IMG/VR virus record: IMGVR_UViG_3300045988_152087
Span: 1 to 35,987 of that record
Reading direction: 5' to 3' (one strand)
DNA length: 35,987 nt
Source of the DNA: a virus
Made by a program: the position numbers and the translations under genes. The notes below the pieces were generated by a model that saw only the letters and a program-made list of their open reading frames with translations, was not told the origin of the DNA and did no database searches. Shown here piece by piece: positions 2,874 to 35,987 of this stretch. Positions within the stretch are counted from its first letter, which is position 1; every line of letters starts with the position of its first letter.

Positions 2874-5255
2874 CTAGTGACTCATCCCCGGCTGAGCCCA
2901 GACGGACAGGCGGGCGCCTCCCCCGCGCGGGTCCCCGACCTGACCCAACGGCTCCCACCCGAGCGCCCGCATCGTGGCAGTCACCGCGCGCACCGTCGTT
3001 CGCTGGGGGAGCTCATCCTTCAGGTCCACCATGAGGGTGGCGGCCGAAACCGGCTGCGGGGTCCATGTCGGGTCCTTGACAAGCATCGCGGTCTCCCGCT
3101 CCACCTTGCCCATCCAGGCGTGGCCCCGCGGGCGAGGCGTCATGATGTACCGGTACACCGGGCCAACCAGAGGGTCCTCCTCAGTGGCCCGCTCGGCCCT
3201 CGCGGACTGCATGACCTGCTCTTCCTCGTCGCTGAGCCACGTGGACTCCCCGCGCTTGAACAGCACGACAGCCTCGGCCCAGATCTGGTCGCGGCGCTCG
3301 GGGGTGAGGAACGCCGTGGGGATGGTCTCCACGATCCGCACGGGCCAGTACCGGCGGTTCCCCTCCTCGTTGGCAAGGAAGTCCTCGTGGTTCGTGGTGC
3401 CCCACACCACGAAGCGGCGGGCCATCGTGCGCGACGTGCGCCCGTACTTCGGCCGCCACGTGTCCGAGCGGGCGGTGAGGAATCGCTTCAGCGCGTCCCC
3501 ATACCGGGAGCCGCTGCGAGTGACCGCGAACCCCTCGTCGGCCTCAACAATCCATGCCTTGTGACACGGGTCGAACAGGTCCGCGTCTCCGCCGAGGATG
3601 TCAGGCAGTGGTGCCGCCCACGGGCCGGCGAGCCAGCGCACCCACGACGTCTTGCGCGTGCCCTGCGGGCCAACGAGGACCAGCGAGGAGTCCACCTGCC
3701 ACCCGGGCCGGTACGCGCGGGCCACGGCCGCCACGCATGCCCGCATCACGGCCCGTGACGCCCAGCGGCGCTCATCCTCGTCGTCGCGGTCCACGCCCGG
3801 CAGCACCTCTTGGAGCGTGGCGGCGCCACCAGACAAGCGCGGCACGCCGTCCCACTCCAGCCGGTCCAGGTATGAGGTCAGCGGGTCGATCTCCCGACCG
3901 GGCTGAGAGGCGGAGAGGCTGAGCAGCTCCCTCACCGTGGAGATCGACGGCACGTCCCCGCCGTAGTGCTTGCCGAGGTACTGCTGCACCGCGGCCTCGT
4001 CCTCGTCCTGATCGGGGTACAGGCCCAGGCGCCGGGCCTCCTGCTCGAACAGCTCGGACTCACTGGCCCACTCTGGCTTGACCCTCCAACCCGGTCGGCG
4101 CCCCATCGCGGAGATGGCCCTGGAGGCGAGCATCGGGTCCATGTCCACGAGCGTCTGGCGGTCCTTGGCGTCGGTGAGCGCCCGCTTGCCCGTCTTGGGG
4201 TTGCGGGGGCTGAGCGCCGCCTCGCACGCCTCGATGGTCAGCGGGCCGTCCGGCTGGGGGCCGGCGTCGAAGGTGGCGGCGGCCATCTCCTCGGCGACGG
4301 CGGGAATCTGCGCTGCGTCCACGCCCATCAGCGCCCGGGAGCGGCGCTCGGCCGGGGGCTTGTCCTGGTCGTCCTGGGCACTGCCGGTCTGAAGGCCGTG
4401 GCGCCACTCGGCCACCAGGTCGAACACGCTCATGGTCTGCCCGTGGGTCGGCGAGGTGCCGGCGTGGTCGAACCACAGCGTGCGATCCTCGTTGACCGGG
4501 GTGAGCCCTGGCTGAGTCTGAGTGGAGTCGATGTGGATGAAACCATTCCCGCAGGGGCGGTAGGGGAGCTGGAACTCCTCGACGGCCTCCTCCATTGAAT
4601 AGGTCCGGTTGAATGCGCCGGCAGCACCGGGGAGCTGAAGCGGGTCCCGGCGGGTGCGGTGCTTCGGTGAATCGGAATTAGCGGGGGCCTGATTGAACAT
4701 CGGGGTGGAGTTGAGAACTGAATCCACCTCGATAGGGTCGCCATTAATGCGGTGTACCTCGACCCCGAACAGCTCGGCGTTCGAACCCGGGATGATGTGT
4801 GGGAGGAAAAAGCGGTGGCACCCCGCCATGGCGGACGGGTCGACAATTACGCCGAGCTTCTCCGCCGCCCATTTCACGAGGGTCGGATAAGCGCCGGGGT
4901 GAACAGGGCGATCAATGGCGATGATGACCCGGAGCCGAGGGCGCTCGGCGGTGTGGGATGCGGTCGTGTGGACAACGGAGTCCCACCCCTGCCGGCGGAG
5001 CCGCTCAGGCACGTCATGCGGCACGTCCTGGTCCAGGTCGAGCACGACGGCGGTGTGCTCGACGACGTTCTCCGCCGTTGCGCGGGGGGCCCTCAGCGTC
5101 CCCACGAACACGCCGGGGACGGACCGAGGGTCCTTCTCCAAGACGGGGGCGGAGGCTGCGAGGTCGGTGAAAGTGTCTAGGGTCCACTCCTTCTGGCGGT
5201 AGTCCCCGCTCGCGAGGGGGGAGGCCAGGGACACTGGAATGGTGATGGCGGTCAC
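2874..5255 (-). CDS. DNA primase-helicase (N-terminal prim-pol-like domain + C-terminal VirE/P4-type NTPase)
   Basis: 793 aa with a GTG start. Walker A GPQGTRKTS sits in the C-terminal half and VirE-like motifs (FVVWGTTNHEDFL) follow. Size and position next to the other replication genes fit. Confidence 0.65.
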   Translation of the reverse strand: MTAITIPVSLASPLASGDYRQKEWTLDTFTDLAASAPVLEKDPRSVPGVFVGTLRAPRATAENVVEHTAVVLDLDQDVPHDVPERLRRQGWDSVVHTTASHTAERPRLRVIIAIDRPVHPGAYPTLVKWAAEKLGVIVDPSAMAGCHRFFLPHIIPGSNAELFGVEVHRINGDPIEVDSVLNSTPMFNQAPANSDSPKHRTRRDPLQLPGAAGAFNRTYSMEEAVEEFQLPYRPCGNGFIHIDSTQTQPGLTPVNEDRTLWFDHAGTSPTHGQTMSVFDLVAEWRHGLQTGSAQDDQDKPPAERRSRALMGVDAAQIPAVAEEMAAATFDAGPQPDGPLTIEACEAALSPRNPKTGKRALTDAKDRQTLVDMDPMLASRAISAMGRRPGWRVKPEWASESELFEQEARRLGLYPDQDEDEAAVQQYLGKHYGGDVPSISTVRELLSLSASQPGREIDPLTSYLDRLEWDGVPRLSGGAATLQEVLPGVDRDDEDERRWASRAVMRACVAAVARAYRPGWQVDSSLVLVGPQGTRKTSWVRWLAGPWAAPLPDILGGDADLFDPCHKAWIVEADEGFAVTRSGSRYGDALKRFLTARSDTWRPKYGRTSRTMARRFVVWGTTNHEDFLANEEGNRRYWPVRIVETIPTAFLTPERRDQIWAEAVVLFKRGESTWLSDEEEQVMQSARAERATEEDPLVGPVYRYIMTPRPRGHAWMGKVERETAMLVKDPTWTPQPVSAATLMVDLKDELPQRTTVRAVTATMRALGWEPLGQVGDPRGGGARLSVWAQPGMSH

Positions 5256-5833
5256 GATTTATCTCTCTCTAGGTTGTGGTCGGGGGTCCGTCACCCATCA
5301 AGGCGGGGCGGAGCGGCTTGGCCCGGACGCTACCATGATGGTGGGGAACCTTGCAAGGGGAAACGTTGCAACGACGCGGCGCTACTAGGTTGACTAGGTA
5401 AATGGGGCGAAATCGGTGAAACTTTGCGCGCCGTCAGGTAACGATTCGTTACCCTCGTGTCCCAGGTCATATGACCGAGCGGATATATCGGCGTCGTGAT
5501 CTACCCAACCGGGCGGAAGCGTGTCCGCTGGGCCCGAGATGGCGCGATTTCGCGCACCTAGCACGAACCTAGTGGACCCGGAATCGGCGGAATGACGCCA
5601 AAAAGTCCCCCCTTCTACTAACTACTACCTTCTTTCTATAGAGAGTAGAGAGAGAGAGTAAAGGAATGGTAAAGAAAAAGGGGGAGAGAACTATACGCGG
5701 GCGCGCGCGAGGCAGCGGCTTGTGACTGGGGTCACGCTGCACCGGGGCCGGCCCCCGCCAACGGTCGTGGGGGCGACCCACGTGGCGCGGACCACACTTG
5801 CGCGCTCAGCGCCCCATCGAGTACGCTGGAGCC
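5256..5833. promoter_or_regulatory. Divergent control/origin-like region between the leftward primase operon and the rightward HNH/late genes
   Basis: Perfect palindromes GGTAACGATTCGTTACC (5437-5453), GGTCATATGACC (~5465-5476), CGTTGCAACG (~5351-5360) and GCGCGATTTCGCGC. CTAGGTTG occurs twice and ACCTAG twice. A polypyrimidine-to-polypurine tract spans ~5590-5690 and is markedly AT-rich. Dyad GTGACTGGGGTCAC lies at 5722-5735. TTGCGC-N18-TACGCT-N6-ATG sits before the HNH start. Confidence 0.6.
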
Positions 5834-6265
5834 ATGACGCCGACCATGCCGCCCACGAGATGCACCCAGCCGGGGTGCACGCGCTTGACCCCCTCCGGCG
5901 CATCGAGGTGCCCCACCCACGCCAGCCGGACCCCCTCGGCACACACCCGGTGGCTCCAAGCCCACCCCTCCCACCGAGCCCCCTGGGCCTCCCTGCGTAC
6001 CCGGACCCTCCAGGCACACCCCTCCTGCCAGTGGCCGGGCTGCACCGCCCCGAGCACCGAGGTGGACCACATCGTGGAGATCGCCGACGGGGGCGCATTC
6101 CTCGACGAGGGAAATGTTCAGGCTCTTTGCCGTGAGCACCACGAGCGCAAGACAGCAATCGCAGCTGCGAATCGAAAAGCGAATAGCACTCGGCTCCGCA
6201 AGGCGAAGGGCAAAGCCGTTAAGCGCAAGCCGCGCATTCCACGCGACGCGACTTGGGTCGAGTAA
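5834..6265 (+). CDS. HNH endonuclease (terminase-associated)
   Basis: CQWPGC...VDHIVEIADGG...NVQALCREHHERKT is an HNH motif. The ORF-track start at 5798 is a TTG; the ATG at 5834 (MTPTMPPTRC...) is preferred. Position next to terS fits cos-type phages. Confidence 0.8.
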   Translation: MTPTMPPTRCTQPGCTRLTPSGASRCPTHASRTPSAHTRWLQAHPSHRAPWASLRTRTLQAHPSCQWPGCTAPSTEVDHIVEIADGGAFLDEGNVQALCREHHERKTAIAAANRKANSTRLRKAKGKAVKRKPRIPRDATWVE

Positions 6266-6585
6266 AGCCTCAACAATCGAGGCACACACAAAATCAAAAA
6301 AATACAAAACTGATTCAACGTGGAGTCGAGAAACCGAAACGGCGACGAAGCCGAACGGGGGATTGAAAAAGCCGGAGGGGCGTTCCACAAAAACAAAACA
6401 CGCCGCCAGGGGGGCGCGCCCGTCATTCCAAGCCAAAAACTCGGCATTCGGCCCCTCTTGCGCACGGGCGCGAGGCGTGCTAGGCTGATCCCACCGCCGG
6501 GCGCAGACCCACATCGAGGATCGAAGCTTGCACTACGGGGTAGCGTCCGGCGGCTCCCTACCGATCAGATTCCGAGGAGCCGACG
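6266..6585. other. A-tract-rich non-coding region; candidate cos / terminase recognition site
   Basis: Runs such as caaaatcaaaaaaatacaaaac, gaaaccgaaacgg, gattgaaaaagcc, cacaaaaacaaaacac and agccaaaaactc sit in an otherwise ~67% GC genome, between HNH and terS. The terS RBS gaggag lies at ~6574. Confidence 0.45.
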
Positions 6586-12929: not shown

Positions 12930-13005
12930 TGCTATGCGCCACACTTGACAACAGATCATTCGGCGACGTAGTGTGTGAACACACCAACCACCGAAGGGAT
13001 CAACA

Positions 13006-28210: not shown

Positions 28211-28278
28211 GGCTCAACCATATGCACGAGCACGGCGGCCACACAAGTTATGTGGCCGCCGTGCTTACGTGATGCTTG

Positions 28279-29436
28279 TCACCAGAGGCGCCAAGCCAGC
28301 GCGTCCCCTCCCTTCACCTCGAAGCTCAGGACGCTTGACGCTGTTGAGTCGCCGGAGATGTTCGTCCACCAGTCCGACCCACGGTCCGCGCTCGGGCAGG
28401 AGATCACCCACCGGCCGTCCCCGACCTGGCTCACGCCGAAGTTGTGCCAGTGCCCGTGAACCAGCACATGGGCACGTTCTAGGCCACTCCTGCGGCCGAA
28501 CGCCTGGCCCCTGAACCAGTCACCCACCTTGGACTGCCGACCCGCCAGATGGCCGTGTGTGAAGCCCACAGCGGTGCCCCCGACGTCCACGGTCACAGAC
28601 TCCTCGTGGGGCAGTGGCCGAGCGAACTCGACGTGCTCGAATCCGGGTCGGCCGGCCACGACGTCCTCGACGTTCTCCGAGATCATCAGCCCGAAGTCGT
28701 CGAACGGCGCGTTGGCCTGCTTGCCCTTTCCAAGCCCGGTCCGGACCTGGCAGTGGTTGGACGGAACAGCGACGTAGACGAGACGGCCACAGAACGGAGC
28801 GAGCTCGGCCACCGTCTCAGCGAGGATGCGCTGTGCGACCCTGATCTGTGTGGTGAGCGCGATGTCGTTCGTCTGGGCCTGGCTGGACACGTTCCAGAAC
28901 CCCTCCGTGACGTCCCCGACGTCGGCCAGCACGAGGGTGGACAAACCGCCTTCCAGGATCGACGCCTTGAACGACCGCACGGCGCTGCGGACGCGGGCGA
29001 TCGTCTCGGCCGTCCCGCCTCGGGAGCCCACCTTGCCGATCTGGAGATCAGCCAGGCAGAGCACAGCGTGCTTCTCGGGTGCGAGCGGGTCCCGCTCCCA
29101 CACCTCAGGCTCTCGGTCAAACACCGGCAGCAGGTCGTCGTAGGACAACGACTTGGCCTCGGCCATCTCGGCGGCGCCCGGCTTCCACGTGATCTTCTCG
29201 TAGGAACCGTCGGGTAGGCGGATCGTCTTCCCGCGCTGCACGATGGCGTCCACGGGGACGTCGTTGAAGAACGCGTCGTGCCCCTGGTCGGGGGCGCCGC
29301 GGCGCTTCAGCTTGGCCCGGTGCCGGCGCACCGATGCCTCAGAGGTGCTGAACTCGTCCGCGATCTCTTGGTTGGTCCGCTGCCGCTCGCGGGGAAGCAG
29401 GTCATTGGCGATGATCGCCTCGTCAAGCGGGGTCAA
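28279..29436 (-). CDS. HTH domain + calcineurin-like metallophosphoesterase
   Basis: N-terminal HTH (RTNQEIADEFSTSEASVRRHRAKL). Phosphoesterase motifs LADLQIGK, GDVTEG, NH and GHWH are present. Confidence 0.65.
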   Translation of the reverse strand: MTPLDEAIIANDLLPRERQRTNQEIADEFSTSEASVRRHRAKLKRRGAPDQGHDAFFNDVPVDAIVQRGKTIRLPDGSYEKITWKPGAAEMAEAKSLSYDDLLPVFDREPEVWERDPLAPEKHAVLCLADLQIGKVGSRGGTAETIARVRSAVRSFKASILEGGLSTLVLADVGDVTEGFWNVSSQAQTNDIALTTQIRVAQRILAETVAELAPFCGRLVYVAVPSNHCQVRTGLGKGKQANAPFDDFGLMISENVEDVVAGRPGFEHVEFARPLPHEESVTVDVGGTAVGFTHGHLAGRQSKVGDWFRGQAFGRRSGLERAHVLVHGHWHNFGVSQVGDGRWVISCPSADRGSDWWTNISGDSTASSVLSFEVKGGDALAWRLW

Positions 29437-30559: not shown

Positions 30560-32524
30560 CTAGTCAAGTTCATCCGCGTCCGTGAGCTTCCTGTAACGGT
30601 CCACGACGCCGCCGGCAGCGCGCAGGTGCAGGCCCGGCGCCCACGGCAGGTCGGAGCTCATGATGTCCCGAACCTTGTGGAACGCCTCGATGCCGGCGGA
30701 GGACGGCTTTCCGGCCGCGTAGTCCCACCACTCAGCAGGCCCCTTTATGAGCACCTCATCGTGGACGTGGGCCACGATCTCGAACCCCGCGCGATCGAGC
30801 CGCACCATTGCAGATGCCAGGCAGTCGCGGGCCACGGCCTGCACGAGGTTCTCCGTCAGGCGACCGCCGAACGTCTCGACGGCGATGCCGCGGCGCGCGT
30901 CCCAGAACGCCACGGACGGGCGGCCCCAGCGGTCCTGCGTCGCACGGATGCCTCGGTAGATCAGGGTTCGGCCGCTCGGCAGCAGCATCCTGCGGAAGGC
31001 TCGGCCGAAAGAGTCCTGCCCGGCGACGATGCGCTCCCCGCCAGTTCGGAACTCGCGGCCGAGCTGGTCCCACAGCGCCGTGATGTGGGGGTTCGCTCGG
31101 CGCCATGCGTCCACCTGGGCCTGAAGCGCCTCGTCGCTCGGGCCGTCGCCTGCGAACACGCGCAGACCGTTCGGACCCGCGCCGTAGCCGCAGCCGAGCA
31201 GGGCCGTCTTACCCTCCTGGCGAGTCATCTCGTGGCCGACGGCGGAGCTCATGCGCGATGCCGTCTCGACGTAGAGGTCACGCTTGGCCTCGTAGGCGTC
31301 TAGCACCCATTGCTCGCCGGCGAGCCAGGCAAGCACGATAGCCTCGATGGAGGTGTAGTCGCAGACGATCAGGGGGCCGGCAATGACCGAGCGCACGCAC
31401 GCCGCAACCTCGACCGGGGTTACCAGCTCGCCGAGCAGGCACTTGTCGAGCACGTCGTCAACCGTCTCTCCCTCGGGCAGATGCTCCCGGGGGAGGTTCT
31501 GCGGCTGGAAGCCGCTCCCGCTCCAGCGGCCGGTGTGGGCGCCGAGGTAGCGGAGAGTCCCACGCGCTCGGTTGCCGGCGCCCCGTCGCAGCTCGGCCGC
31601 CGCGAGCTTCTTCCCCGCGACGCGGGCGGACGCCACTCGCAACTCAGCGACGCGACGCACCTCGGCCGGTAGCGACTCGTCCGCGGCCAGGCGCTCAACG
31701 GTCTCTCGGCGTAGATCGGGGAGGTTGATCCCCTTCGACGCGAACCACGTGCACAGCTGGGCGGTGCTGTTCGGGTTGGCGAGGCCGGTGATGCTCTTCA
31801 ACTCCTCCGCCTGTCGGCTCACGTTGTCGTCCTCGCAGCGCTGAAGGGCGTGCAGCAGCTCGACATCGAGGGGGAGGCCGGCATCCGTGATCTTCTCGGC
31901 GGTGAGCTCGACGGCGCGCTCCAACGCCGAGGGGGACAGGTCGATAGCCTGCCACTCGCGCTCCAGCGCGCGGTGCGCCTGCCGGAGGACCTCGACGTCC
32001 TGGATGCCGTAGGCGCGGAACTCAGTCCAGCGCTCGGGGTCATCGCTCGGCATGCGTCGGCCGCCGCGGAACGTCTTGGTCGCCGGCTGCGGCTTGGCGA
32101 AGCGGTTAATGAGGAGCGTCCCGGCCGTGTCCTTGTCCTCACACTTCAGCGCCTTGGCGAGGCTCTTCAGCGAGCTGGGGAGGCCGAGGAGGTACGCCCA
32201 GTGCATGGTGTCGATCCACTCGGCGGGGTCGAGGTAGTTGCCAGTGGCGCGTCCGTGGGTGTACGCGCTGACCTGGATTCGGTCGAACGCAGCGTTGTGA
32301 GCGACCTTGGTAACCGCAGGGTCCTGGATGAGGCCCAGGAACTCACCCCACAGCTCGGGGTCATGGCCCTCGGTGGTGGGCCCCTCGGTGATCTTCACAG
32401 GCTTGTCGTCGAGCGCCCACATCGCGAGGGTGATGCAGGCTTCAGGGCTCTCAGCGTAGCGGTGCGCGCCGGCCGAGATATCGATGTCGGAGTAGGTCTC
32501 AGTGTCTAGGTAAAGGGTTGGCAT
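30560..32524 (-). CDS. DNA polymerase I family (3'-5' exonuclease + family-A polymerase)
   Basis: Exo I motif LYLDTETYS, motif B RQEGKTALLGCGYGAG and motif C HVHDEVLI are present. The alternative start GTG 32590 overlaps the DUF3310 stop (GTGA) and would place hairpin 32538-32584 inside codons 3-19. Confidence 0.8.
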   Translation of the reverse strand: MPTLYLDTETYSDIDISAGAHRYAESPEACITLAMWALDDKPVKITEGPTTEGHDPELWGEFLGLIQDPAVTKVAHNAAFDRIQVSAYTHGRATGNYLDPAEWIDTMHWAYLLGLPSSLKSLAKALKCEDKDTAGTLLINRFAKPQPATKTFRGGRRMPSDDPERWTEFRAYGIQDVEVLRQAHRALEREWQAIDLSPSALERAVELTAEKITDAGLPLDVELLHALQRCEDDNVSRQAEELKSITGLANPNSTAQLCTWFASKGINLPDLRRETVERLAADESLPAEVRRVAELRVASARVAGKKLAAAELRRGAGNRARGTLRYLGAHTGRWSGSGFQPQNLPREHLPEGETVDDVLDKCLLGELVTPVEVAACVRSVIAGPLIVCDYTSIEAIVLAWLAGEQWVLDAYEAKRDLYVETASRMSSAVGHEMTRQEGKTALLGCGYGAGPNGLRVFAGDGPSDEALQAQVDAWRRANPHITALWDQLGREFRTGGERIVAGQDSFGRAFRRMLLPSGRTLIYRGIRATQDRWGRPSVAFWDARRGIAVETFGGRLTENLVQAVARDCLASAMVRLDRAGFEIVAHVHDEVLIKGPAEWWDYAAGKPSSAGIEAFHKVRDIMSSDLPWAPGLHLRAAGGVVDRYRKLTDADELD

Positions 32525-32537
32525 GGCTATAGAATAT

Positions 32538-32584
32538 GACGAAGCCCCCGGTGTCCGCAAGTTCTGCGGCCCGGGGGCTTCGTC
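32538..32584 (-). promoter_or_regulatory. Hairpin (14-bp perfect stem gacgaagcccccgg/ccgggggcttcgtc, nested inner stem) with TTGCGG-N18-TATTCT-N6-ATG leaderless promoter candidate
   Basis: Seen directly. The stem sequence matches the hairpin at 12888-12929. On the reverse strand it is followed by aTATTCTatagccATG. Confidence 0.45.
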
Positions 32585-32814: not shown

Positions 32815-33068
32815 CGTCTCGCCCCCTCTGTCGTGTCGATTGTGGTGACTGGGTGGCCCATGGCCTCGAGGTGCCGGTGGACCATCTTCTGCGACTCCCT
32901 TGGCACCTCGCCAGGGGCCTTGAGCTCGACTAGCCTCGTCTCCCCATTCGGGAGGAGGATCAGCCGGTCGGGGAGCCCCCTCATCGTGGGGGCTAGCTTG
33001 ATCGCTAGACCCCCGCGGGCGCTGACCGCTGCGACCAGCGCCCGCTCAACTGGGGTCTCGGGCCTCAC
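32787..33068 (-). CDS. VRR-NUC domain nuclease
   Basis: GLPDRLILLPNGETRLVELKAPGEVPRESQKMVHRHLEAMGH is VRR-NUC-like. Confidence 0.65.
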   Translation of the reverse strand: MRPETPVERALVAAVSARGGLAIKLAPTMRGLPDRLILLPNGETRLVELKAPGEVPRESQKMVHRHLEAMGHPVTTIDTTEGARRWAETHVTR

Positions 33069-33637
33069 ATCAGACCCGCGAGGGGGTCCTCGTCAGCGGC
33101 CGGCTGACTGGCGGACGGCTGGGCGGGGCCGAACAGGCTCTCTGCCGAGGCGGCTCCCCCGCCGAAGCGCTCACCACCACCGAGGATCTGGACCATCTGG
33201 AGCCCGAAGGAGACCCCCTTGGACCCATCCACCTCGTAGGCGAAGGCACGAACCGCGACGCGGGCCTTCTGGCCGCCGTATACCTCCTCGGCGATCTGCT
33301 CGTCGGAGAACGGGAGGAGGTCCGTGCCCACGATCGGCACTCGGCGGATCGAGGAGGCGTTGAAGGTGATGTGCCCGGCCTGCTCCTCGTAGTCGCTGTT
33401 GTCCCCGTCCTTCAGCGGGGTACGCAGGCTCTTCGGGACCTTGGTGCCCCACTTCTCGGCGGCGGCCTCGCGGACGGCGCCCTTCAGGGCCTCGATGGTG
33501 GTGGTGTCACTCTTGGGGACCATGACGGCGGTGGAGACCTTGGGCTTGCTGTTGCCGTTGCGGGCCTCCAGCTCCGCCAGGTGGGGCCAGGACAGGGTTG
33601 CAGGGCCAGTGGTGACGTCGACGCTCATGCGTTTTCC
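33065..33637 (-). CDS. DUF2815 family protein (phage ssDNA-binding-like)
   Basis: ATG 33637 with RBS gagaggaaaa. The N-terminus MSVDVTTGPATLSWPHLAELEA matches the DUF2815 start. The longer ORF-track call to 33874 would engulf the overlapping HTH ORF. Confidence 0.65.
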   Translation of the reverse strand, partial: GKRMSVDVTTGPATLSWPHLAELEARNGNSKPKVSTAVMVPKSDTTTIEALKGAVREAAAEKWGTKVPKSLRTPLKDGDNSDYEEQAGHITFNASSIRRVPIVGTDLLPFSDEQIAEEVYGGQKARVAVRAFAYEVDGSKGVSFGLQMVQILGGGERFGGGAASAESLFGPAQPSASQPAADEDPLAGLM

Positions 33638-33867
33638 TCTCGGGTTTGGTTGGTGTTGGGGCGACGGCGGGCGAACTTGCCCGCCCAGCGCATCGCTGTC
33701 TGCGTGGTGACTCCGACCTCTCGGGCGATCATGGGCCACGGGAGGCCCAGCTTGTGGAGCCGGTTGAGCGCCCGGCGGCGCTCGGTGGTGAAGCGGGAGA
33801 GACTCGTCTCCTGCTTCTCGATCAGGTTGCGGAGGTTGTCCACCTCCTTGCGGATATCGTCGTCCAT
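33625..33867 (-). CDS. Small HTH DNA-binding protein
   Basis: 80 aa; LGLPWPMIAREVGVTTQTAMRWAGK is a helix-turn-helix. It overlaps the DUF2815 start by 13 nt. Confidence 0.5.
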   Translation of the reverse strand: MDDDIRKEVDNLRNLIEKQETSLSRFTTERRRALNRLHKLGLPWPMIAREVGVTTQTAMRWAGKFARRRPNTNQTREENA

Positions 33868-33870
33868 GGC

Positions 33871-35325
33871 TCAAATATATGCGAGGTCATCCGAATCGGT
33901 CAAGTTGACACCCCCGTGTTCCTCATCACTCAGGCCGAGCGTGGTGAACACCGTCCGCTGGATGTCCGCCTTGCGGCCCAGCGCGTCCCAGATCGCGGAA
34001 GCGATAGACGGCTCTCCGCGGCCGTACACCGGCACGTTGAACTGGCAGGACACACTCTCCGCCGTCTGGCCTGGCCGGGCGAGTCGGGCGTTAGCCTGCT
34101 CCCACAGCTCCAGCGACCACGGCAAGCAGGACCACACCAGCGACTCACCCCCGAACTGGAGGTTGAGCCCGTGACCCGCTGACGCCGGGTGGGCGATAAG
34201 CACGTCAAGGTTGCCGGCGTTGAACGCCGCGCGGTCCTCGGCGCGCTTGGCCGAGCCGATGCGCATCTCCCGCAGCTGAGCCCGCAAGTACGGTTCCTCG
34301 TGCCTGAACCACGTCATCACCAGAACGCCGCGGCCAGTGACCTTCAGGCGAGCGCGCACGGCCGAGGCCGTGTAGTCCAGAGCCGGCCGAATGCGGTCCA
34401 CCTGAACCAGCTCGGGCTCAGCATCGGGGTCGAGCGGCGGCCGATACCAGATCGCCCCAGTGGTGAGCTGGTGCATCAGGTTCGCCACGGCACCCGGCCC
34501 CGACGTGTAGACCTCGCGCCCGTCGGGCAGGTGCGTCACGCCGTCGGCGAGCAGCTCCCTGCTCATGCGGACCGCCTCGCACCCCATGGTCGGGGTGAGC
34601 GCCTGGTAGGCCACCCCGGGAAGCACGAGCCCCTCGCCGGCCTCGGCGTATCGCATCACGTCGGACGCCTTGAGGATAAGCCGCCGCATCGCCCCGGGGC
34701 GCGGCTCGCGGCCGACTCGGGCGCCTGTGGGGATCATCCGCCCCTCGGTGAGGTACTCGTCGCGGGCACGGGTGACCGTCTTGCCAAGGCGCTCCCCACC
34801 GTCGAGCATCCGCACCAGCGACCACACCCCGATCGGATCATGGCCTGGGGTGCCGGTCAGCAACCACAGACGGTCGGCCGCCGAGGCCAGCTCCCGCAGC
34901 GCTCGGGCACGCTGGGACTCACCCCGGCTCGCCGAGGGGGTCATGTACCCGCTGGCCTCATCGACCACTACCGTTCTCCACGTGGTGTCGCTGAGCACGG
35001 CATCCCGGATCGAGGCGCTGGAGAGCACCACGACGTCGGCCAGCGTGTCGTCCAGAGCGGCGCGGCGCTTCGACGCTGGCGTGCGCGGGGCGGCCTCTAC
35101 GACGAGCGGGATGCTGCGGCGCTCGGCCTCGTCAGACCACGTGGACTCACTGACCGTCGGGGGTGCCAGGACGAGGGCTGGGAAGGAGTCAGCGGGCAGG
35201 TCCGCGAGCGCCCGCAGCGTCGTCCACGTCTTTCCGGTGCCCATGCCCGCGATGAGGAGACCCCTCGGGTGGCTGACGAGCCATTCCCGGGAGGTCTCCT
35301 GCTCCGGTGTGAGGGCCGCTGTCAC
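33871..35325 (-). CDS. SNF2-family helicase (DEAD/DEAH-like ATPase + helicase C domain)
   Basis: Walker A GMGTGKT, VVVDEASGY and helicase-C motif HPASAGHGLNL are present. GTG 35325 overlaps the upstream stop (GTGA). Confidence 0.8.
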   Translation of the reverse strand: MTAALTPEQETSREWLVSHPRGLLIAGMGTGKTWTTLRALADLPADSFPALVLAPPTVSESTWSDEAERRSIPLVVEAAPRTPASKRRAALDDTLADVVVLSSASIRDAVLSDTTWRTVVVDEASGYMTPSASRGESQRARALRELASAADRLWLLTGTPGHDPIGVWSLVRMLDGGERLGKTVTRARDEYLTEGRMIPTGARVGREPRPGAMRRLILKASDVMRYAEAGEGLVLPGVAYQALTPTMGCEAVRMSRELLADGVTHLPDGREVYTSGPGAVANLMHQLTTGAIWYRPPLDPDAEPELVQVDRIRPALDYTASAVRARLKVTGRGVLVMTWFRHEEPYLRAQLREMRIGSAKRAEDRAAFNAGNLDVLIAHPASAGHGLNLQFGGESLVWSCLPWSLELWEQANARLARPGQTAESVSCQFNVPVYGRGEPSIASAIWDALGRKADIQRTVFTTLGLSDEEHGGVNLTDSDDLAYI

Positions 35326-35742: not shown

Positions 35743-35786
35743 AGCATAGAATCGGCTCCCCGCCTTGTCAAGAGGGGAGCCGATTC
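35743..35786 (-). promoter_or_regulatory. Terminator hairpin with embedded sigma70-like promoter (module A)
   Basis: 13-bp perfect stem 35749-35761/35774-35786 with loop gccttgtcaaga. On the reverse strand the loop holds TTGACA (35771-35766), then a 17-nt spacer, TATGCT (35748-35743), 7 nt (taggcac), then ATG 35735. It lies directly downstream of the surface-protein stop. Confidence 0.6.
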
Positions 35787-35799
35787 AGTTCCTATTGGG

Positions 35800-35987
35800 T
35801 CAGTGGTTGCGGCGGTTGCGGACGAGGAGTCCCGCGCCGACCAGGGCCGCGGCCGTGAGCAGTGCTCCGCCGGCCGCGATTCCGGTGTGGGCGAGCTGTG
35901 GGGTCTCGGCCGAGGGGGTCGGGGTGGGCTCGGGCTTCTTGGGCTCGACCGAGGGGGTGGGCTCGGGCTTCTTGGGCTCGACCGAGG
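35800..35987 (-). CDS. Cell-wall-anchored surface protein, C-terminal part (PT repeats + LAHTG sortase motif + TM + basic tail); enters from the window end
   Basis: Reverse translation gives ...SVEPKKPEPTPSVEPKKPEPTPTPSAETPQLAHTGIAAGGALLTAAALVGAGLLVRNRRNH*. LAxTG is the class-E sortase signal of Actinobacteria. Confidence 0.8.
   Translation of the reverse strand, partial: SVEPKKPEPTPSVEPKKPEPTPTPSAETPQLAHTGIAAGGALLTAAALVGAGLLVRNRRNH

Follow-up and report, generated by a model that had tools for sequence, protein, structure and literature searches.

A divergent control region with two outward promoters and a candidate replication origin beside the primase-helicase gene of an uncultured high-GC siphovirus

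In the L5-like mycobacteriophages the early leftward promoter, P_left, lies near the right genome end, and the Cutibacterium acnes phages have a low-GC non-coding region at the right end that has been guessed to hold the origin of replication. Here we describe the 578 bp intergenic region at positions 5256–5833 of the virus record IMGVR_UViG_3300045988_152087 in IMG/VR; the whole stretch analysed (35,987 bp, 67% GC) is referred to below as the window. The region separates a leftwards-transcribed gene for a VapE-type primase-helicase from a rightwards-transcribed HNH gene, which is followed by the small (TerS) and large (TerL) terminase subunit genes. These flanking genes are as described in an earlier note made from the sequence alone, which gave the length of the gap as 542 bp. 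The region is the sole junction in the genome where both arms diverge. The explanation that we favour, and to which we give an even chance of being right, is that this is the central control region of the phage, with two outward promoters (P_L and P_R) and a core that acts as a replication origin; in this explanation the phage is a cos-packaging siphovirus, probably virulent, of a high-GC actinobacterial host.

Several described origins are relevant to the comparison. At T4 oriF and oriG an activator-dependent promoter without a -35 element is followed by a downstream DNA-unwinding element, and an R-loop serves as primer; ColE1 RNA II is of a similar class. The lambda ori is inside the initiator gene, and the initiator of SV40 and polyoma is an SF3 helicase. 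The Rep proteins of the Staphylococcus aureus pathogenicity islands (SaPIs) are self-loading initiator helicases, the C-terminal winged helix of which binds 5-6-nt repeats flanking an AT-rich region by the rep gene (PMC9371898), and PriRep5 is a primase-Rep fusion (PMC9371898).

The primase-helicase encoded to the left of the region (793 aa; gene 2874–5255, minus strand) is an AEP PrimPol fused to an SF3-type helicase. Its only sequence match in the PDB is SaPI1 Rep1 (7PDS, E=1.7e-25 with phmmer, identity ~22%), and an AlphaFold2 model, moderately reliable with a pLDDT of 66, also has 7PDS as its best Foldseek match (E=2e-19, TM 0.61). The next fold matches are the PrimPol of African swine fever virus, MPXV E5, NrS-1, AAV Rep and vaccinia D5, which are PrimPol/SF3 origin helicases, and the N-terminal part matches the AEP domain of the S-2L PrimPol. 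The model ends in a domain of three helices and a beta-hairpin that is winged-helix-like. Such an initiator needs a cognate origin, and because the core of the intergenic region is the only conserved, promoter-free and easily melted DNA beside the gene, it is the candidate that we put forward; the 92 bp gap downstream of the gene (2782–2873) holds only a promoter.

Relatives were found by protein-guided and pattern searches of IMG/VR, JGI/ENA metagenomes and Logan assemblies, and about 20 distinct ones have a gene order identical to that of the window. In group A the primase is 81–98% identical to that of the window and in group B 67–70%. The clade includes ~40 protein clusters at a primase identity of at least 67% and was met repeatedly in metagenomes, several with Human Microbiome Project-style sample numbers. 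The next primase homologues have only 26% identity, and no relatives between 67% and 26%, which were sought to see whether the conserved tract described below travels with the primase or with the HNH gene, were found. There was no nucleotide match to positions 4800–6300 in 50,697 phage records in either near or distant searches, and a literature search for Actinomyces phage relatives gave nothing relevant. The cultured VapE-primase phages CL31 and Montesquieu were considered as comparators and set aside as uninformative, having a different gene order. The intergenic region can be aligned throughout within group A, and between the groups the right half can be aligned but the left half cannot. 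The last ~50 residues of the primase-helicase (741–793) are 51–53% identical between groups A and B as opposed to 77–84% for the helicase core, and residues 101–200 are lower still (46%); we note that both segments evolve much faster than the helicase core within as well as between groups. The divergence of the C-terminus parallels the occurrence of group-specific boxes in the intergenic region.

The best conserved non-coding element is a tract composed of GCRGAAT, an A run (A5 in most), 19–21 nt, CTACCTTCT and a purine run. In the window, all on the plus strand, this begins with GGCGGAATGACGCC and an A5 run at 5586–5604 (CNGCRGAAT...AAAAA in both groups) and continues with a pyrimidine tract with ACTAC repeats at 5606–5637, including the invariant core CTACCTTCT (5625–5633) and within it a -10-like hexamer, TACCTT (5626–5631). 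The purine tract follows at 5638–5690, with AAAGAAAAAGGGGGA at 5671–5685; its composition is conserved but its sequence is not, and its purine fraction (0.92) is the maximum of the genome. A GC-rich block, ATACGCGGGCGCGCGCGAGG (5693–5712), closes the tract, and is TA.GCG.GCGC.CGCGAG in group A and ATACGCGG in group B. The A run is positioned 19–21 nt before the hexamer in 16 of 17 relatives, and the remaining one (L169) looks alike by eye and is outside the search pattern. Among 13 distinct sequences the hexamer never varies at T1, A2 or T6, and the variants TATCTT and TACCCT differ at the N positions only.

The AT-rich switch from pyrimidines to purines had been placed by the earlier note at about this position, and it spans 5606–5690. 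Positions 5616–5695 are the lowest-GC 80 bp of the genome (36% vs 67%), and the least stable 60-bp duplex of the genome is in the tract, at -69.8 kcal/mol compared to a mean of -96.7 kcal/mol; the hexamer lies 7 nt before the purine half of this least stable stretch. The property is shared, in that the tract is the least stable 60-bp duplex at 16 of 16 tested relatives' loci (-64 to -72 vs ~-97 kcal/mol). The suggestion that the tract is a DNA-unwinding element is thus a credible one.

To the left of the tract are two sites with a TAACG dyad. Site I (5437–5453), TAACG-N3-CGTTA, forms a 17-bp palindrome, GGTAACGATTCGTTACC, and is kept in both groups at -186 to -192 from the tract hexamer (e.g. 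TAACGAATCGTTA in L230, TAACGACGTCGTTA in L008 and TAACAATCCCGTTA in L234); TAACG-N3/4-CGTTA occurs once in the window, where 0.02 copies are expected. Site II (5486–5499) is degenerate, TATCGGCGTCGTGA, and its counterparts are at -138 to -141 in nearly all relatives (TAACGGTGTCGTTA, TAACGGCGTCGTTA and TAACGGTGTCGTGA in group A, TAACGGAACGATCA in group B). Both sites keep their distances across the groups although the flanking sequence is unrelated. A third motif, GAACCNA, is kept 52 nt before the hexamer in both groups, and the spacing between it and the CTACCTTCT block is constant in all relatives. In the window it is at the proximal one (GAACCTAGT) of two ACCTAG boxes (5556–5573, minus strand), and group B has GAACCAATC at the GAACCTAGT position. 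These boxes are in opposite orientation to two tandem ACTAGGT boxes at 5384–5402 (plus strand), 28 nt upstream of the P_L -35, so that there are two tandem pairs of CTAG boxes in opposite orientation, in group A only. The left pair, CTAGGTAAA, is nearly invariant in group A (L005 has CTATGTAAA) and is absent from group B, and all three copies of ACTAGGT in the window are within the region. A sequence resembling the box at 5394–5405, CTAGGTAAAGGG, is present at 32506–32517, just within the DNA polymerase gene.

One relative provides an informative departure. In L169 the segment equivalent to 5425–5565 of the window (L169 positions 1798–1950, ~140 bp) is replaced by unrelated sequence, with flanks that are 86–94% identical; the segment replaced is the one that in the window holds dyad I, the palindrome GGTCATATGACC and dyad II, and the replacement is a module swap. 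We count this exchange of the central part as a unit as fitting with an origin. The conservation also bears on a simpler view, in which the gap, apart from its promoters, lacks any specific function, being AT-rich spacer DNA that is bent or bound by a nucleoid protein (Lsr2-like) and conserved through recent ancestry. Some conservation is indeed expected without selection because the relatives form a tight clade, with primase identities of at least 67%. However, the TAACG sites and GAACCNA are at identical distances where the left half is unalignable between groups, the variation of the hexamer is confined to N positions, and the low stability persists while the sequence changes; we consider a functionless spacer to be decidedly improbable.

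At the edges of the region, transcription from P_L is predicted to run leftwards, with a ~65-nt leader for the PrimPol/SF3-helicase gene, and transcription from P_R rightwards, with a leaderless HNH mRNA. The conserved core, within the ~440 bp between the promoters, comprises the two TAACG dyads ~50 bp apart, GAACCNA, GCRGAAT-A5, CTACCTTCT and the purine tract. If the core is an origin, its action can be outlined as follows. The dyads and boxes would bind the initiator, whether through the C-terminal winged-helix-like domain of the primase-helicase or a small helix-turn-helix (HTH) protein of 80 aa encoded elsewhere in the genome, or both, and the tract would be the place of strand opening and helicase loading. 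Since the conserved -10-like hexamer points towards the purine half, a short transcript rich in purines might assist or prime the opening, as happens at T4 oriF/oriG or ColE1. A more specific version can be imagined, with a new type of origin for PriRep-like PrimPol/SF3 helicases in which the TAACG dyads place the initiator at a fixed distance from the pyrimidine-to-purine switch, the -10-only promoter makes a removal-resistant polypurine RNA that primes the leading strand, and the switch provides, on both strands, a pyrimidine-rich template for outward, bidirectional priming; this we regard as speculative and rather unlikely.

Several observations weigh against the core being an origin. The TAACG dyads are conserved in both groups and the C-terminus of the helicase is not, so that the dyads may bind another protein, such as the 80-aa HTH protein, and their role may be confined to transcription. 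A promoter would account equally well for the invariant TANNNT and for the fixed block upstream, other AT-rich stretches of the genome coincide with promoters, and the switch in strand composition mirrors the genome-wide switch of the coding strand at this junction. The organization also departs from that of the SaPIs, where the origin is immediately downstream of rep, whereas the candidate here is upstream of the gene, and there is no array of 6–12 pentamer or hexamer repeats flanking the AT-rich part in opposite orientations. We searched for SaPI-style iteron symmetry around the tract and did not find it, the CTACT/TACTA repeats being mostly on one side; the inverted ACCTAG pairs flank a segment of 59% GC and are absent from group B.

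The main rival to an origin is that the region is purely transcriptional, with a third, -10-only promoter (P_M; TACCTT at 5626–5631, start near A5638) that would depend on a regulator acting via the conserved upstream block, which consists of the A5 run, GCRGAAT, the GAACCNA or ACCTAG boxes and the TAACG dyads. The purine tract would then be the initially transcribed region and the origin would be elsewhere, for example inside the primase gene. The behaviour of the hexamer in the 13 sequences is that expected of a promoter, the first purines are 6–8 nt downstream of it, the conserved block extends from about -75 to -1 with fixed spacing, the ACCTAG pairs are similarly distant upstream of P_L and P_M, and the other low-GC spots of the genome are promoters. 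However, the ten other promoter-like sites of the phage all have a TTG -35 at 17–18 nt and TACCTT has none, and a canonical promoter, P_R, is only 170 bp downstream in the same direction. There is no conserved open reading frame (ORF) after P_M, a 19-codon ORF at 5666 being missing from L010, L002 and L230, and neither an activator nor an alternative sigma factor was found in the genome. P_M also leaves unexplained why the least stable duplex is here in the window and at all tested relatives' loci. A purely transcriptional role is a serious contender, and on this evidence a somewhat unlikely one.

The tract could alternatively be a structured RNA or a leftward intrinsic terminator, or the gap could hide small protein genes. 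A long imperfect hairpin is indeed predicted for the plus-strand RNA of 5575–5700 (-35.7 kcal/mol, z=-2.3), and on the minus strand a hairpin is followed by U5, the A5/T5 run being conserved. However, the RNAalifold consensus of 13 sequences has no pairs, and a conserved hairpin, terminator or small RNA in the tract was dropped for this reason. The minus-strand and DNA folds are unremarkable (z=-1.0 and z=-0.1), neither the gathering score nor E<=1 brings up an Rfam match, there is no tRNA or tmRNA according to ARAGORN, and no leftward transcript is known that would need to end here. The ORFs in the gap (the 19-codon ORF at 5666 and others of 46–70 codons) are without frame-specific conservation, and the indels are not multiples of three. 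Each of these possibilities seems very doubtful.

The two outward promoters were identified with the pattern TTGNNN-17/18-TANNNT together with conservation, which replaced a built-in E. coli-type scan. The latter, using the E. coli consensus, reported no promoters, and the relaxed pattern was adopted because that scan is too strict for promoters of the TANNNT type. Only three TANNNT hexamers are kept in all divergent group A members, all three are present in group B, and two of them have TTG 17–18 nt upstream. P_L (5327–5356, minus strand) has TTGCAA (5356–5351), an 18-nt spacer and TAGCGT (5332–5327), and is predicted to serve the primase-helicase gene from a start near 5320, giving a 5′ untranslated region of ~65 nt. 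There is exactly one match in the 140 nt before the primase gene in 17 of 17 relatives, even though the groups cannot be aligned there, with the -35 variants TTGCAA, TTGCTA, TTGACT, TTGACC and TTGCCC and the -10 variants TAGCGT, TAGTGT, TAGTAT, TAGGGT, TACCGT and TAGCCT. A palindrome at 5349–5358, CCTTGCAAGG, corresponds to the P_L -35 plus flanking bases, and relatives keep only the minus-strand CTTG (CAAG is invariant) and lose the palindrome (e.g. CCTAGCAAGA, CTAGTCAAGG). The part of the 5′ untranslated region read as a ribosome-binding stretch (5262–5276, minus strand) contains the purine-rich AGAGAGAGA and a CTAGGTTG box, and its alignment is variable with indels in the relatives.

P_R (5798–5836, plus strand) has TTGCGC (5798–5803), an 18-nt spacer and TACGCT (5822–5827), followed after 6 nt by the HNH start codon, ATG 5834, which is also the predicted +1. 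The arrangement TTGNNN-17/18-NANNNT-6 nt-start codon is kept in 16 of 17 relatives while the spacer drifts; the L008 equivalent is TTGACG-18-CATCAT-6-ATG, and L232 has a GTG start at unchanged spacing. The downstream part in the window is TACGCT-GGAGCC-ATG. With just 2 nt between GGAG and ATG there is no room for ribosome binding at GGAG, and we therefore predict a leaderless mRNA for HNH. L011 is without GGAG and keeps TATGCT (TATGCT-GGGCCC-ATG). P_L and P_R are the only canonical promoter matches in the region, and their interpretation as outward promoters for the host housekeeping sigma factor is well supported by pattern and conservation. With canonical promoters at both edges, in 17 of 17 and 16 of 17 relatives, the description of a divergent control region is borne out.

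The same grammar recurs across the genome. Eleven TTGNNN-17/18-TANNNT sites are present in the window, nine of them outside genes, and six are followed after 6–7 nt by the start codon (ATG) of a long ORF whose third codon positions are GC-rich. These ORFs are HNH, the DNA polymerase (32524), the 80-aa HTH protein and the ORFs starting at 1158, 28210 and 35735; the five leaderless layouts besides HNH (starts at 1158, 28210, 32524, 33867 and 35735) are all on the minus strand. Leaderless promoters of actinobacteria, as seen in Mycobacterium, Streptomyces and Corynebacterium transcriptomes, have a TANNNT -10 that sits 6–7 nt before the start codon. P_R and the five other genes follow this, with TTGNNN-17/18-TANNNT-6/7 nt-ATG and no usable Shine-Dalgarno sequence; they differ in that the starts here are predicted ones. 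The leaderless set often carries an NGAGCC-ATG motif, and the DNA polymerase probably starts at ATG 32524 behind its leaderless promoter, rather than at GTG 32590. Strong TTGACA-like/TANNNT promoters are at 1166–1195, 2835–2864, 12945–12974, 28217–28246, 32531–32560, 33874–33903 and 35743–35771. Within the left arm itself there are thus at least six more promoters, and the region does not control a single replication operon in the way that the earlier note had proposed.

A second family of dyads is associated with the promoters. Dyad a (TGTGACTGGGGTCACG, 5721–5736) contains GTGACTGGGGTCAC (5722–5735) and is of the type TGTGA-N6-TCACR, matching 9 of 10 positions of TGTGA-N6-TCACA; the consensus is that of CRP/FNR-type sites. 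TGTGA-N6-TCACR is unique in the window (0.015 expected), and no CRP-family protein was found among the phage products. Group A retains the shorter pattern GTGR-N6-YCAC, at +92 to +107 relative to the hexamer. Dyad b (CGTGGCGCGGACCACA, 5781–5796) ends 1 nt before the P_R -35, and members of both groups have GTGR-N6-YCAC at +145 to +157; in most relatives a YCAC half-site abuts the P_R TTG. Three copies of GTGR-N6-YCAC are in or at the region (5242, over the primase start codon, 5721–5736 and 5781–5796), where 0.035 are expected, and those by P_R and over the primase start codon are probable sites for a dimeric regulator that would time both promoters. Another copy precedes the leaderless promoter at 28217–28246. 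Separately, GGGTCCACT was considered as a DnaA box and rejected, as it is not conserved in relatives.

These dyads, together with the divergent promoters, the enrichment of palindromes and the presence of a small HTH protein at 33625–33867, are the features that recommend the leading idea of the earlier note, a lambdoid immunity region in which the palindromes are CI and Cro operators of a lysis-lysogeny switch; GTGR-N6-YCAC dyads do abut P_R and cover the primase start codon. However, the complete genome has no integrase, repressor, CI or Cro that can be recognized with Pfam, PHROGs or NCBIfam, and no prophage copies or relatives are present in 185,579 reference bacterial genomes (GTDB). The neighbours are a primase and an HNH nuclease rather than regulators, most of the palindromes are not conserved, and the TAACG dyads are 80–190 bp from either promoter without overlapping them, with only dyad b abutting P_R. 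The only regulator candidate in the genome is the 80-aa ORF, with a weak HTH_23 match (E=1.4e-4) that is under the Pfam threshold, and the N-terminus of 28279–29436, proposed as a second HTH, belongs to an MRE11/SbcD-like exonuclease with no evident HTH. An immunity region is therefore hard to credit. That no CI- or Cro-like gene is recognizable had been noted as a puzzle, which largely dissolves given that there is no lysogeny module and no relative in the reference genomes; for the same reasons the phage is probably virulent.

The quoted motifs are all present at their positions, and the palindrome density is real: seven perfect palindromes have arms of 5 bp or more, compared to a mean of 1.47 in 2000 dinucleotide-preserving shuffles (P=0.001). 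Stretches of 578 bp elsewhere in the genome have a mean of 1.9, and the region ranks in the top 0.4%. Three of the four palindromes said to be perfect are so (GGTAACGATTCGTTACC, GGTCATATGACC and CGTTGCAACG), and the fourth, GCGCGATTTCGCGC, is imperfect, with 6-bp arms around TT; another, CCTTGCAAGG at 5349–5358, had been overlooked. As for conservation, only the 17-bp TAACG dyad and GTGACTGGGGTCAC among those listed belong to conserved motif families. The other listed palindromes are lineage-specific, with GGTCATATGACC, CGTTGCAACG and GCGCGATTTCGCGC lost at 70–80% identity, and to call the region dense in operators is an overstatement. GGTCATATGACC (5465–5476) is replaced by GGCCATATCACC, GGCCATATAACC, GGTCATTTAACC and GATCTAACTGAC in relatives, and the dyad is lost. 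CGTTGCAACG (5364–5373), which contains the second TTGCAA copy, 15 bp from the first (direct repeat D6), is semi-conserved (GCTGAAAC, GTTGCAAC, CCCGGAAC) without the palindrome being kept, and GCGCGATTTCGCGC (5542–5555), of which GAAATCG is mirrored at 5409 (inverted repeat I25), is weakly conserved.

CTAG is avoided in the genome: base composition predicts 109 copies and a Markov model 43, and the window has 32. Five of the 32 fall in the region, which is 1.6% of the genome (P=1.5e-4). The repeated occurrence of CTAGGTTG (5269 and 5385) and ACCTAG (5556 and 5567) was correctly observed, and there is a third CTAGGT at 5394 that was missed; five of the nine CTAGGT copies in the window are inside the region.

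The gene content of the window is that of an HK97-like siphovirus. The rightward arm encodes HNH, a Terminase_4 TerS, TerL, portal, S78 protease, HK97-fold capsid, tail proteins and an Amidase_2 lysin, and the leftward arm an MRE11-like exonuclease, a family A DNA polymerase, a DUF2815 single-strand-binding protein, an SNF2 helicase, a DUF2800 nuclease and the VapE-type primase-helicase. The real HNH gene is 5834–6265, and the long overlapping ORFs (5722–6135, 5798–6265, 5732–6514 and similar) are typical high-GC artefacts. The single-strand-binding protein, of the DUF2815/Enc34 type, is encoded at 33065–~33630 on the minus strand. After the exonuclease gene, within 28211–28282, there is a perfect hairpin with a 13-bp stem (minus strand CACGGCGGCCACA-taactt-TGTGGCCGCCGTG), the 3′ arm of which holds the -35 of the next promoter, and a CRP-like dyad, GGTGACAAGCATCACG, overlaps the stop codon there.

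The window ends share a 32-nt exact overlap within a 39-nt tandem repeat, GGTGGGCTCGGGCTTCTTGGGCTCGACCGAGGGGGTCGG (1–100 and 35870–35987), that sits in the leftward gene starting at 1158 behind its leaderless promoter, and the contig of one relative reads through the repeat uninterrupted. From the overlap and the read-through contig, we conclude that the window is a complete, circularly assembled genome of ~36 kb opened at the repeat. A shared break near window position 1 was considered as a physical end and rejected as an artefact, the 39-nt tandem repeat breaking the assemblies of several relatives.

A cos site is probable at 6419/6420. The two ends of a 35,830-nt contig abut at this window-equivalent position (…TGCGG and CCGTCATT…), a second contig, independent in both sample and assembler, ends at the identical base, and a third starts 13 nt further on. 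The position is in the gap between HNH and TerS (6266–6585), inside a strongly conserved block (GGGAGGGGCGTTCCRCAAAAA ... GGCGCGC/CCGTCATTYC ... AAAAAYCTGGCATTCGG). Curtobacterium phage Elener, the closest cultured relative by TerL (48.6% aa identity), has HNH as its last gene and TerS near its left end. With ends at 6419/6420, the region at 5256–5833 lies 590–1160 bp inside the right physical end. The region itself could be seen as a cos or pac site for the HNH-terminase machinery, in that it adjoins the HNH gene and has an AT-rich stretch beside GC-rich blocks, as in many cos sites. However, the physical ends map between HNH and TerS, which excludes a cos within it, the order in Elener agrees with a site between those genes, and no end of a full-length-genome contig is inside the region, leaving this the least probable of the readings that we weighed, and barely worth entertaining. 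We also note that 6258–6339 is the second least stable stretch of the genome, and that a canonical promoter, TTGCGC-17-TAGGCT (6458–6486), lies 38 bp inside the left physical end and 93 nt before TerS, and is conserved in nearly all relatives.

As phage control regions go, this one is of an ordinary kind, and the phage group to which it belongs is undescribed. Should the core prove to be an origin, a SaPI-Rep-like PrimPol-helicase carried by an actinobacterial phage would have its origin assigned for the first time, and the core would be a compact part for replicons or for phage-interference tests; if it is not, the region would be a routine early/late control region. Either way, the comparison gives a promoter grammar for an uncultured and isolated clade of high-GC phages, with ten predicted promoters, six of them leaderless, and the predictions extend to the physical genome end and the conserved protein-binding sites, each element being precise and testable.

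The locus resembles described systems at several levels. Next to it, the order HNH, gap, Terminase_4 TerS and TerL, with the ends in the HNH–TerS gap, is that of the HK97-type HNH-cos-TerS-TerL module, although this likeness concerns the neighbouring gap at 6266–6585 and not 5256–5833. As in the L5-like and C. acnes phages, structural and lysis genes are transcribed rightwards, starting at the left end, and replication genes leftwards from a promoter region that lies some hundreds of bp in from the right end, and this promoter region is the lowest-GC non-coding stretch; unlike the L5-type phages, there is no repressor/stoperator system, HNH is between the region and cos, and the left arm has many internal promoters. 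With lambda ori and the SV40 and polyoma core origins the locus has no sequence similarity, and the number and arrangement of sites differ, but it has in common dyads or repeats beside an AT-rich segment with purine/pyrimidine strand asymmetry. The promoter role of the hexamer and an R-loop are candidates proposed from the letters, which sets the locus apart from T4 oriF, but as in T4 oriF/oriG and ColE1 a conserved -10-only hexamer faces a low-stability stretch, the predicted transcript is purine-rich, a composition that favours stable RNA-DNA hybrids; the phage of the window encodes a family A DNA polymerase. AAAGAAAAAGGGGGA may resemble the HIV-1 polypurine tract, a likeness that serves as a lead and not as a test. 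SaPI PriRep5 is a parallel for the protein, in that the window protein is likewise a primase-Rep-type fusion, and as at the SaPI origins, the gene for a Rep-like helicase adjoins an AT-rich stretch of ~80 bp with short repeated motifs nearby.

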